From an uncultured Candidatus Rokubacteria bacterium (GTDB lineage Bacteria > Methylomirabilota > Methylomirabilia > Rokubacteriales > CSP1-6): a stretch of DNA of 64,000 nucleotides. Below the pieces are notes generated by a model. It was not told where the DNA came from. It saw nothing but the letters and a program-made list of their open reading frames with translations, and did not search any database. Shown one piece after another: positions 9,923-12,556 of the stretch (the stretch's first letter is position 1; each line of letters begins with the position of its first letter). The stretch lies in assembly GCA_963762145.1 (NCBI GenBank), contig CAVXJS010000014.1, positions 160,001 to 224,000 of the forward strand, given 5' to 3'. The position numbers and the translations under genes are program-made.

Positions 9923-10503
9923 CGCGGCTCCTGGCCGTCGTGGGCGCGGTGACGCCGCCGGGGCGCCTCGACGCGGCGGTGCGCTTCGCGGCCGACCGCG
10001 CGGCGGACCACGGAGGTGATCGGCGCGATATCTCCGCCACCGTCCTGAGCCTCGGCGCGCACCGCGTCTCCTTCGCGGACGGCCGCCCGCTCGACCGCTA
10101 TCCCGACGATACTGCGCGCGTCGTCGGCGCGATCGCCGAGGCCGACGCCGTGCTGCTCGCGAGCCCGGTCTACCGCGCCTCGTTCACCGGCGCGCTCAAG
10201 AACCTGCTCGATCTCACCCCGGTGGAGGCGCTGCGGGCCAAGCCGGTCGGGATCGTGGCGATGGGAGCGACGCTGCATCACTACCTGGGGGTGGACTGGC
10301 AGCTCCGCGCGGTGCTGGCCTGGTTCGGGGCGCTGGTGGCGCCGACCAGCGTCTACCTCGAGTCGGGCCACTTCCAGGACGGCCAGCTCACCGACCCGGC
10401 CGCACGAGCCGGCCTCGGCGACCTGGTCGGCGCGCTCGTCGCGATGGCGGGCTACCCCCGGGATCAGGCGGGCCCACCCCCATTGGCCGCAGGCCGCGGC
10501 TAG
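9919..10503 (+). CDS. NADPH-dependent FMN reductase (SsuE/MsuE-like)
   Basis: SPVYRASFTGALKNLLD motif; GTGA overlap with LLM gene. Confidence 0.88.
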   Translation: MTRLLAVVGAVTPPGRLDAAVRFAADRAADHGGDRRDISATVLSLGAHRVSFADGRPLDRYPDDTARVVGAIAEADAVLLASPVYRASFTGALKNLLDLTPVEALRAKPVGIVAMGATLHHYLGVDWQLRAVLAWFGALVAPTSVYLESGHFQDGQLTDPAARAGLGDLVGALVAMAGYPRDQAGPPPLAAGRG

Positions 10504-10537
10504 ACGCGCGCGCTAGGGTAGGCCTCGTTCGGGGCCT

Positions 10538-11095
10538 TCAAGGCCCCTTTCGATCAACCAGTCCGCGGATGACGTCGCGCGCGGCCTCGCTCTTCCAGTC
10601 GCGGCCGCCGACGATCCGGCCGACCAGACGCCCCTCGCGGTCGACCAGGTAGGCGGTGGGCGGTCCAAAGACGCCGTATGCCCGCCCGGTGAGGTCACCC
10701 GAGGCGTCGAGAAGCACCGGCGCGGTGTAGCCGCGGGCGGTCACCGTGCGCTTCACGATGTCCGCGCTCTCGCGAAAGGTGATCAGGAAGACGTCGAGCC
10801 CCTGTCCCTTGAATTCCTCGTAGAGCCGATTGACGGAAGGTAACTCCTCCCGGCAGGTCGTTCACCAGGTGGCCCAGAAGAACAGCAGCAGCGCCTTGCC
10901 CTTCTGGTCTTCGAGCTTCACGGTGCGGCCGTCGAGCGCGGGCAGGGCAAAGGCGGGCGCGGGGCGGGGCGACTCGTAGGCCTGGACGCCCATCTTTTCC
11001 CAGGCCGGCGGCGCGGCGGCGGGTTGCGCCGCCGCGGCCCCGGCCCAGAGCGCGGCCGCGATCAGGGTGACCGCGGCGAGCGGGCGCGCGCTCAC
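10538..11095 (-). CDS. TlpA/ResA-like thiol-disulfide oxidoreductase, selenoprotein (UxxC), with signal peptide
   Basis: FFWATW-TGA(10862-10864)-TTCREELP continues in frame to YGVFGPPTAYLVDREGR; SECIS-like hairpin at +10; GTG start overlaps upstream stop. Confidence 0.9.
10834..10852 (-). promoter_or_regulatory. bacterial SECIS-like hairpin
   Basis: CGGGAGG-AGTTA-CCTTCCG, 7-bp stem (one G-U) starting +10 after UGA. Confidence 0.75.
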
Positions 11096-11652
11096 GCGCC
11101 CGAGTCCTTGAGCGCCTTCAGCACCTCGGCCGGATCGAGCAGGTCGAGCGCATTGTCCTGGATCTTCATGAACCGGACCACGCCGTTCTTGTCGATCACG
11201 TAGTACGCGCGCTTGGCGTAGCGGAAGATCGGGCTCTTCTCGTCGGTGACCAGCGCGTCGTAGCCGGGCAGCATCGTGCGGCGGAAGTCGGACAGGAGGG
11301 GATAGCTGATCTTGTTCTGCTTGGTGAAGGCGTCCAGCGTGGCCGCGTGATCGGCGCTGATGCCCACGACCTGGGCGCCGGCGGCGGTGAACTGGGGCAA
11401 GGTCTCCTCGAAACCGAGGAGCTCCTTGGTTCAGGTATTGGTGAACGCCTGGATGAACGTGAAGACGACGACGGGGCCCTTGGCGGTCAGCTCGGACAGC
11501 TTGACCGGCTTGTTCCCCGGGCCCGGCAGGGTGAAATCGGGCGCTTTCTGGCCAACTTCCAGGGCCGCGGCCGGGCCGGCCGAGCCGAGGACGGCGACGC
11601 CCAGGCCGATCAGCAGCAGGGCCGCGATCAGCAGGGGAGTGATTCGACGCAT
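11092..11652 (-). CDS. secreted peroxiredoxin (AhpC/TSA, BCP/AhpE-like), selenoprotein (TxxU)
   Basis: signal peptide; VGQKAPDFTL; QAFTNT-TGA(11431-11433)-TKEL continues in frame to GISAD, PLLSD, RAYYVIDKNG; AAGGAG SD. Confidence 0.9.
11404..11421 (-). promoter_or_regulatory. bacterial SECIS-like hairpin
   Basis: perfect CTCCTCG-GTTT-CGAGGAG stem-loop starting +10 after UGA. Confidence 0.8.
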
Positions 11653-11739
11653 GGCGCTCTCCTTTCGAGGGTCGAGGGTGACACCCACACAACGAGCGGC
11701 GGGCTCCCGAAGTTTCCAGGCCACGCGCATAATGCTCGC

Positions 11740-12556
11740 ATGAATCGGTCGGTCGCTGCAGAGGCTATCGTCCCGGACCGGATGGCCTGGCGGATCCACC
11801 GGGAGCGGGTGCTGCTGGCCGGCTGGGGCCGGGCCATCCTGCTGCAGATCGCCCACCCGAAAGTGGCGCGCGGGGTGGCCGAGCACAGCGGGTTCGCCAG
11901 CGACCGGTGGGGGCGGCTCCGGCGGCTGCGGCGCACGCTGACCGCGATGCTCGCGCTGACCTTTGGCTCGGAGGCGGAGGCCGCGGCCTCGGCCGCGCGG
12001 ATCAATGCCATCCACGACCGCGTGCACGACCGGCTCGAGGGGCCGGAGGCGTACAGCGCGCACGATCCCGAGCTCGCTCACCTGGGTGCACGCCACCCTG
12101 GTCGAGTCATTCCTGCTGACCTACCGCCTCTTCGTGGGACCGGTGACGAGCGAGGAAGGCGATCGGTACTGCGCGGAGGCCGCCGGCATCGAGCCGGCGC
12201 TCGGCATCCCGCCGGGCCGGCTCCCGCGGACGGAGCGCGCGCTCCGCGAGTATCTGGACGGGATGCTGGCGGGCGGCTCGATCGAGGTGACCGACACCGC
12301 CCGGCGCCTCTCGCTCGAGATCATCAGGCCGCCCGCTCCGGCGATTCTCCGGCCCGCGCTCTGGCTGGCCGCGCTGCCGGCCGTCGGCCTCCTGCCCCCC
12401 TCGATCCGCGAGGCCTACGGGTTCCGGTGGAGTGACGGCCGGGCGCGGGCGCTTGGCGTGCTGGCCGCCGTGACGCGCGGGAGCCTCCCGCTGACGCCGC
12501 CGGGTCTTCGCTACTGGGCGGTGGCGCGCCGGGCGGAGCGGCGGGTGCGGCGGTGA
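11740..12556 (+). CDS. oxygenase MpaB / DUF2236 family protein (one frameshift near 12075)
   Basis: RAILLQIAHPKVARGVAEHS and YSAHDPEL|LTWVHATL lie in different frames. Confidence 0.8.

Follow-up and report, generated by a model that had tools for sequence, protein, structure and literature searches.

A conserved pair of Rokubacteria genes with in-frame TGA codons, predicted to encode an exported selenocysteine peroxiredoxin and a selenocysteine TlpA-like protein

Why would two neighboring genes each carry a single TGA codon in frame, exactly where the catalytic residue of the encoded protein is expected? The question is raised by a stretch of 64,000 nucleotides (the window) from an uncultured Candidatus Rokubacteria bacterium (GenBank assembly GCA_963762145.1, contig CAVXJS010000014.1, positions 160,001 to 224,000 of the forward strand). 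On its minus strand lie a gene for a peroxiredoxin (Prx) and, overlapping its end, a gene for a thioredoxin-fold protein resembling TlpA and ResA, here called the TlpA-like protein (Table 1). The single in-frame TGA is embedded in the motif FTNT-U-TKE in Prx and WATW-U-TTC in the TlpA-like protein, with U standing for selenocysteine (Sec). A sequence-only reading of the locus had placed these codons at the catalytic positions, and this was confirmed: codon 74 of Prx is the peroxidatic position of a T-x-x-U motif, and codon 78 of the TlpA-like gene is the first position of U-x-x-C. The same reading held that both frames run on past the TGA into a full thioredoxin fold and that the genes overlap by GTGA, and both statements agree with our results. 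The Pfam families AhpC-TSA and Redoxin cover the whole domain of both read-through products on both sides of the TGA, namely residues 33-161 of Prx (AhpC-TSA, E 5.5e-30; PF00578 score of 104 bits against a cut-off of 26 bits) and residues 45-157 of the TlpA-like protein (E 6.9e-25, with AhpC-TSA as the best match and further matches to Redoxin and Thioredoxin_8).

We conclude with high confidence that both genes are selenoprotein genes, as the sequence-only reading had proposed, because the genome has the Sec machinery, the TGA codons are conserved, homologs have Cys at the same positions, and hairpins of the selenocysteine insertion sequence (SECIS) type follow both codons. Each UGA is predicted to be recoded as Sec by the SelA/SelB/SelD/tRNA-Sec system of the genome, through the hairpin just downstream. 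The assembly that contains the window comprises 6.26 Mb in 25 contigs and is 88% complete. A search for selA, selB, selC and selD had been named as a check on the idea, and all four were found: selA (577 bits), selB adjoining it (363 bits), a tRNA-Sec with anticodon TCA about 1.4 kb from selA (69 bits), and selD. The genome has two selD genes, one of which carries a TGA of its own at the known Sec/Cys site (A-G-U-A-S-K; C11:419505-420437, L010). The second (C14:136744-137655, L011) is free of TGA and is found on the contig of the window, about 22 kb upstream of it.

The conservation of the TGA codons was followed at several depths. In a search of 61 genomes of the same order, including that of the window, Prx was present in 48 at E 1e-20 or better. 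Among the matches listed, every one spanning residue 74 has exactly one in-frame TGA; the sole match marked as having none is partial and covers residues 82-186. In 30 loci fetched from this search, exactly one Prx TGA was present at the aligned column in 30/30, and the TlpA-like gene had one TGA followed by x-x-C in 29/30, the remaining copy being truncated. A further set was formed by the best 80 of 400 stretches encoding a relative, taken from a public collection with one genome per species; it overlaps the 30-locus set and is not independent of it. TGA was found at the Prx site in 80 of 80 of these loci, at amino-acid identities down to about 60%, and 74 had an adjacent TlpA-like gene with TGA at its own site. 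The other six were a frameshifted copy that still reads W-A-T-W-U, a locus at a contig edge, and four members of a Prx paralog clade without the neighboring gene. At the level of the phylum, 113 of 201 sampled genomes had a Prx ortholog (E 1e-35 or better). The family of the window accounted for 89 of 125, a second family in its order for 14 of 16, and one family in another order of the class for 9 of 15; the remaining families had none. Matches in this sample that span residue 74, among those listed, have the TGA, bar one Cys paralog. The order-level and phylum tallies, and that of the TlpA-like paralogs below, hold one to three unpublished genomes (G029; for the phylum also G107 and G143), and their omission alters no conclusion.

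Homologs with Cys at the same sites were found for both proteins. Four full-length Prx homologs with 49-56% identity (P0243, P0027, P0014, P0016) have Cys at the U74 column and no other conserved Cys, and six TlpA-like homologs (P0125, P0126, P0128-P0131) have CxxC with a Cys aligned to U. The occurrence of Cys or Sec at these positions in relatives, another check proposed with the sequence-only reading, was thereby observed for both genes. Protein-level constraint also extends beyond the TGA codons. Downstream of each TGA, as upstream, ortholog differences fell mainly on the third codon position (positions 1/2/3: 6966/6049/15489 for Prx and 7937/5638/14628 for the TlpA-like gene), and in the ortholog alignment amino-acid conservation after U was as good as before it.

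A different account of the locus would treat the TGA codons as ordinary stops or assembly errors, leaving four fragments or two pseudogenes, or would have TGA read as Trp or Gly. The public record offers some support for it. Public protein sets contain both genes mostly as pieces, C-terminal ones of 102-110 aa and N-terminal ones of 54-94 aa, under names such as 'redoxin domain-containing protein' and 'TlpA family protein disulfide reductase', which matches the earlier remark that standard gene callers split the pair. In addition, a few public calls on short contigs have W (P0003, P0005-P0008, P0011, P0127) or G (P0018, P0124) at the site. In the proteins with W, however, the terminal TGA is likewise read as W, so that these are gene calls made under another genetic code and not real substitutions; genetic code 4 or 25 had evidently been applied, giving proteins that are full-length but wrong. 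Both genes end in the same codon, TGA, and SECIS-type hairpins occur only after the internal TGAs and not at these ends. The TGA at the same codon in all 80 loci, which were assembled by many projects, the persistence of in-frame protein conservation and third-position variation downstream, and the complete Sec system also speak against this account, to which we give almost no credence. We regard sequencing error, pseudogenes and an alternative code as practically ruled out.

We then compared the hairpins downstream of the two TGA codons with the bacterial SECIS (bSECIS) model, which, as given in the available part of a recent source (PMC13188914), combines an apical loop of 3-9 nt, an upper stem of 4-16 bp, G in the first two loop positions, a spacing of 16-37 nt from UGA to loop, and a folding energy of -7.5 kcal/mol or lower. 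Both hairpins of the window satisfy all four constraints of the model. For the TlpA-like hairpin, 98.1% of the cells were paired over 75 distinct sequences, two pairs had changed on both sides in a compensatory manner, and the score was reached by 0 of 500 shuffles; one of the pairs varies between G-U, G-C and A-U. The hairpin is written in codons that are rare in the high-GC3 frames of the window (TTA 0.1% and TTG 1.2% of Leu, CCT 4.9% of Pro), a sign of selection on the RNA. In contrast to it, the hairpin after the Prx TGA of the window is confined to the clade of the window itself. Most relatives fold a longer hairpin that begins 15 nt after the UGA and often has no G in its loop. When 7 orthologs were folded, this longer hairpin came out as the minimum-energy fold in 6; it did not in the sequence of the window, where it is weak (-5.8 kcal/mol) and the fold is different. 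In its outer helix, 96.7% and 89.4% of cells were paired, and 2 and 4 pairs, respectively, had changed on both sides.

Some findings on the hairpins count against the explanation. The Prx hairpin of the window was only 75.8% paired over 23 sequences and showed no compensatory change, and the longer helix, recovered by RNAalifold with 23 sequences, was not recovered from the alignment of 74 Prx sequences. A Prx SECIS appears to be present, but no single fold is conserved, and either the local or the longer hairpin may act as the SECIS. No Rfam family was found in 10400-11800 at E values up to 10, where the three matches were at chance level and none was a SECIS family. Of the earlier statement that a hairpin follows both TGA codons, the part on the window stands, as does the wider conservation of the TlpA-like hairpin; the Prx hairpin turned out to be specific to one clade, with a longer one in most relatives.

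Table 1. Positions of the two genes and of their predicted elements in the window
Feature	Position	Strand	Details or basis
Prx gene	11652-11092	minus	ATG at 11652, TGA stop 11094-11092, 186 codons/aa
Prx Sec codon (UGA), codon 74	11433-11431	minus	peroxidatic position of TxxU; TGA conservation and aligned Cys
Shine-Dalgarno-like AAGGAG	11659..11664	minus	6 nt before the Prx ATG; by reading the sequence
Predicted Prx signal peptide, residues 1-30	11563..11652	minus	MRR, hydrophobic core, Ala-x-Ala; by reading the sequence
Prx candidate bSECIS hairpin	11404..11421	minus	7 bp, loop GUUU, loop 16 nt after UGA, -10.6 kcal/mol
Alternative longer Prx helix	11382..11416	minus	alignment columns 18-27 with 43-52; fold of most relatives
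TlpA-like gene	11095-10538	minus	GTG at 11095, TGA stop 10540-10538, 185 codons/aa
TlpA-like Sec codon (UGA), codon 78	10864-10862	minus	N-terminal position of the CxxC motif; TGA conservation and aligned Cys
Predicted TlpA-like signal peptide or membrane anchor, about residues 1-24	11024..11095	minus	by reading the sequence
TlpA-like bSECIS hairpin	10834..10852	minus	7 bp, loop AGUUA, loop 16 nt after UGA, -9.3 kcal/mol
GTGA overlap, Prx stop and TlpA-like start	11092..11095	minus	sequence and both translations

What kind of proteins would the read-through products be? The first is predicted to be a 1-Sec peroxiredoxin of the BCP/PrxQ type, with neither a resolving residue nor the active-site Pro. 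Its nearest solved structures are archaeal BCPs (2ywn/4g2e, 2cx3/2cx4 and 3hjp; E 1e-25 to 1e-21), and Prx aligns to them both at the catalytic Arg and in the motif that surrounds the peroxidatic residue. In an alignment of 76 rows, the U/C column of T71-x-x-U74 is invariant and T71 is at least 90% conserved; Arg148 is likewise invariant and aligns to the Arg of the KRA motif in the solved BCPs. The sequence-only reading was right to describe Prx as free of Cys, with a single U and no resolving residue: no Cys was found in the window copy or in 30/30 orthologous loci, and 72 of the 76 rows have no Cys beyond the active-site residue, which makes the whole subfamily a one-Cys type, in its Sec as in its Cys members. 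The selenoprotein-specific NCBIfam models PrxU (29.5 bits vs 270), Prx-SUH (28.7 vs 298) and WAxxUGC scored far below threshold, and Prx falls outside the PrxU and Prx-SUH subfamilies. The subfamily is narrow: only 4 of 1.84 billion representatives reach E 1e-30, and 2 of these are fragments. The paralog clade mentioned above (L149, L158, L161, L163) keeps the TGA, has no TlpA-like gene downstream, and ends in the motif KFVKVMD as against RFMKIQD.

The second product is, judging from its sequence, probably a TlpA/ResA-like thioredoxin-fold reductase with Sec at the N-terminal, nucleophilic position of the CxxC motif. Its nearest solved structures are the thioredoxin-family protein 3kcm, ResA and TlpA (1jfu), all aligned over the whole domain. 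W77, U78 (shown as C), C81 and Pro146 are invariant in the TlpA-like alignment, and we take Pro146 to be the cis-Pro of the thioredoxin fold. Further TlpA-like paralogs with 37-45% identity were seen in Rokubacteria, many of them with one in-frame TGA (G020:C28:6889-7335, G050:C22:93707-94228, G029:C265:8659-9189), and the lineage seems to hold several Sec-containing TlpA-like families. The three TlpA-like paralogs of the window's own genome (C14:43755, C7:260369, C11:409568) have no TGA. Some copies of the TlpA-like gene, whether second or single ones, are damaged: one has a one-base deletion inside the SECIS hairpin (L109, 3771-3836), one a frameshift after UxxC (L129), and one retains only the C-terminal 98 residues (L047).

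Both proteins begin with an extension that may serve as an export signal. In Prx the extension amounts to about 30 residues, and the solved cytoplasmic BCPs align only from residue 31; in the TlpA-like protein it amounts to about 25-40 residues, and the solved soluble domains align from residues 18-45. In both extensions, basic residues occur together with an Ala-x-Ala site and a hydrophobic core that spans about 20 residues. Among orthologs the extensions vary in sequence, and the basic start, the hydrophobic core and the small residues at -3 and -1 are kept. We infer that both proteins are exported through these N-terminal signals. For the MRR start of Prx a Tat signal was also considered, and the residues after RR do not fit the usual motif. 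The N-terminal MRR is open to several readings, and one could argue that the two selenoproteins are cytoplasmic, or anchored in the membrane and facing inwards, with N-termini that are no export signals, and form an ordinary thioredoxin-like/Prx couple. We regard such a location as improbable, given that the extensions lie wholly ahead of the domain found in cytoplasmic BCPs, that their signal-like features are retained despite sequence drift, and that the TlpA and ResA relatives are extracytoplasmic. The extensions also fit the available description of the exported peroxiredoxin PprX, which is marked by an extension of the same kind (PMC3322552).

The arrangement of the two genes is itself conserved. 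The TlpA-like gene lies directly downstream of Prx on the same strand in 30/30 loci of the order-level set. In the 80-locus set, 75 loci have an adjacent TlpA-like gene (74 intact, 1 frameshifted), and one more locus is cut off by the end of its contig; this supports the pairing in relatives that the sequence-only reading had proposed to look for. The spacing between the matched Prx and TlpA-like regions in the 74 paired loci ranged from -9 to +63 nt, and the adjacency spans three families in two orders. The two Sec-decoding genes thus form a conserved pair that is often translationally coupled. In one locus (L166, G074:C79:20400-25000), a Cys-Prx paralog with 53.5% identity is followed by a Sec-TlpA-like gene (W-T-T-W-U-P-D-C), and the link is therefore independent of Sec in Prx. 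The conserved operon pairing supports a relay from the TlpA-like protein to Prx. As for an electron donor, the check for dsbD/ccdA returned two DsbD_TM/CcdA homologs elsewhere in the genome (C11:410104-410754 and C19:150199-150834), one of which adjoins a Cys-type TlpA paralog.

Based on general knowledge of peroxiredoxin and thioredoxin-fold reductase chemistry, and on the accessible part of work on a Cys-based pathway (PMC3322552), the relay could operate as follows. Both proteins would be exported through their N-terminal signal sequences. The Prx selenolate would then reduce H2O2 or organic hydroperoxides and become a selenenic acid. With no resolving residue in Prx, Sec78 of the TlpA-like partner would attack this selenenic acid and form an Se-Se bond between the two proteins, which Cys81 of the partner would resolve into an intramolecular selenenylsulfide. 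A membrane transporter of the CcdA/DsbD type, encoded elsewhere in the genome, would finally re-reduce the partner with electrons from cytoplasmic thioredoxin. Prx may have peroxidase activity, and the UxxC protein may be its dedicated reductant, with a Se-Se intermediate. We judge the peroxide relay from the TlpA-like protein to Prx, taken as a whole, to be moderately probable. Its strictest form, an obligate diselenide relay in the cell envelope, in which Prx has shed both the resolving residue and the active-site Pro and a dedicated Sec partner resolves the selenenic acid through an intermolecular Se-Se bond, is put forward only tentatively. If true, it would provide a peroxide scavenger resistant to over-oxidation in the oxidizing extracytoplasmic space of aerobic soil bacteria, and an all-selenium peroxiredoxin/reductase couple as a hallmark of Rokubacteria.

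Several observations weigh against the exported peroxide relay. The Pro of PxxxTxxC is absent in 76/76 rows (Ile in 75, Val in 1), as the sequence-only reading had noticed for the window, and a gap stands at the active-site Pro in the HMMER alignments of Prx to 2ywn and 3hjp; with this residue missing, Prx may not be an ordinary peroxidase. The active-site motif is termed absolutely conserved among the PrxQ members aligned in the Caulobacter study, in the part of it available (PMC3322552). Prx also stays below every NCBIfam cut-off, the best being thiol peroxidase BCP with 54.4 bits vs 140, and so does the TlpA-like protein, among others for ResA (95.2 vs 170), TlpA (75.8 vs 230) and DsbE (53.8 vs 123). 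Four of the 80 Prx copies, those of the paralog clade, have the TGA and no TlpA-like neighbor, which means that this type of Prx can work with another reductant. No CcdA/DsbD-like gene was found within 1.5-3 kb of the pair in 110 loci. The signal peptides were judged by eye from the sequence.

Some of these observations would also suit a reading in which the proteins are exported selenoproteins that do not scavenge peroxide. The Prx without Pro could be a selenol-based reductase, sensor or relay for a different oxidized substrate, with protein sulfenic acids, methionine sulfoxide, and copper or cytochrome assembly factors as candidates, or the TlpA-like protein could serve mainly in cytochrome c or CuA maturation, with adjacency reflecting co-regulation only. 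Besides the absence of the Pro in all rows and the existence of unpaired Prx paralogs, this reading can draw on the role of TlpA and ResA homologs in the maturation of cytochrome oxidase and cytochrome c, seen in family names and in PMC3322552, and on the Caulobacter PrxL, a second exported Prx-like protein, for which the same source gives no detectable peroxidase activity. On the other hand, Prx keeps the catalytic Thr, Sec and Arg, and the local motif AFTxxUTKE is like that of solved active BCPs. The genome moreover has separate Cys-type TlpA-like paralogs, one of them beside a CcdA homolog in the usual layout for cytochrome maturation, and the adjacency of the pair is kept across the three families and two orders. 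We consider a role with other clients, the main rival, less likely, and prefer the peroxide relay.

The surroundings of the pair are simple. It stands alone between a divergent gene for an MpaB-like oxygenase and a convergent FMN-reductase gene, and a consensus scan found no sigma-70 promoter and no intrinsic terminator around it. The MpaB/Lcp-type oxygenase gene (11740-12553, plus strand) is spread over two frames, with Pfam profile positions 1-93 in the frame from 11740 and positions 82-230 in the frame of 11963-12553; the frameshift near 12000-12100 may be genuine or a fault of the assembly. At 10531-10547 on the minus strand, GGGGCC and GGCCCC form a perfect 6-bp G+C hairpin, and its loop UUGAA contains the UGA that ends the TlpA-like gene. 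The hairpin sits between the two convergent genes, no T-run follows it, and the terminator scan made no call there. The stretch of the locus is listed in soil metagenomes and, with small shares, in soil metatranscriptomes; we did not take this as evidence of expression.

Rokubacteria are an abundant uncultured lineage of soil and groundwater. Both genes are mis-annotated as fragments, and peroxide defense and selenium use in this lineage are therefore under-counted. The pair is a compact example in which two selenoenzymes probably pass electrons directly to one another outside the cytoplasm. It could show what Sec gains over Cys in a Prx cycle, namely protection from over-oxidation and rapid resolution in an enzyme that has no resolving residue, and how a selenenylsulfide is re-reduced across a membrane.

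The novelty implied by the sequence-only reading was overstated, since the TxxU and UxxC families are listed already and a Cys-based TlpA-to-Prx pathway of the envelope is known (PMC2398784, PMC13188914, PMC3322552). With the component families and the Cys-based pathway on record, the advance is incremental. For the Sec-Sec pair itself, we found no description in the literature on selenoproteins in Rokubacteria/Methylomirabilota or on selenocysteine with TlpA. A Methylomirabilota metagenome-assembled genome from a groundwater survey, with 63 predicted selenoproteins, is cited in the available part of PMC13188914, and the genes of the pair may already be listed in that survey or in Haft and Tolstoy 2025.

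How, then, does the pair compare with known systems? Both families have been listed since the Sargasso/GOS surveys (PMC2398784, PMC13188914). In the tables available to us (PMC13188914 Table 1, PMC2398784 Table 2), they appear as Prx (TxxU, PF00578), which includes PrxU of Eubacterium acidaminophilum, and as Prx-like thiol:disulfide oxidoreductase (Prx-like 1; UxxC, PF00578). Our Prx resembles the former in its AhpC-TSA fold and in the Sec at the peroxidatic position of TxxU. It differs from the conserved PxxxTxxU of that family, as given in the available part of the review (PMC13188914), by Ile or Val in place of the Pro, and further by a predicted signal peptide and the absence of Cys. The TlpA-like protein resembles the UxxC family in its best Pfam match, AhpC-TSA, and in carrying UxxC within a thioredoxin fold like that of TlpA and ResA. 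Motif and Pfam domain are all that define that family, and the likeness is one of these two features. The available parts of PMC13188914 and PMC2398784 do not mention a pairing of the UxxC family with a Sec-Prx.

Among proteins of solved structure, the archaeal BCPs share the AFTxxC-TKE motif and the KRA Arg with Prx. In contrast to Prx, they are cytoplasmic and Cys-based and have the active-site Pro, where Prx shows a one-residue gap or Ile. TlpA of Bradyrhizobium (1jfu, 4txo) and ResA of Bacillus (1st9 and others) are extracytoplasmic CxxC reductases that align with the TlpA-like protein over the whole domain (E 1.5e-18 to 3e-25), with the Pro matching the usual cis-Pro conserved between them. 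Their known clients are cytochrome and CuA assembly factors and not a peroxiredoxin, and in the TlpA-like protein Sec replaces the first Cys.

The closest parallel is the ScsB-TlpA-PprX pathway of Caulobacter crescentus, in which electrons pass from ScsB to TlpA and from there to the exported BCP-type PprX (PMC3322552; the comparison draws on the part of this source that was available). The two systems share a BCP/PrxQ-type Prx with an N-terminal signal and a TlpA-like thioredoxin-fold protein, with export only predicted in the Rokubacteria case. A DsbD-family membrane protein gives the electrons in Caulobacter; the Rokubacteria genome has CcdA/DsbD_TM homologs, and no search for ScsB was made. 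All redox residues of the Caulobacter pathway are Cys, and PprX has both PxxxTxxC and a resolving Cys, whereas here both sites are Sec and Prx has neither of these features. The Caulobacter genes for TlpA (CC2210) and PprX (CC1673) have distant locus numbers and were linked by prediction and then by testing, whereas the genes described here are adjacent and often overlap. In outline, the pair may thus be a Sec-based, operonic version of the ScsB-TlpA-PprX pathway.

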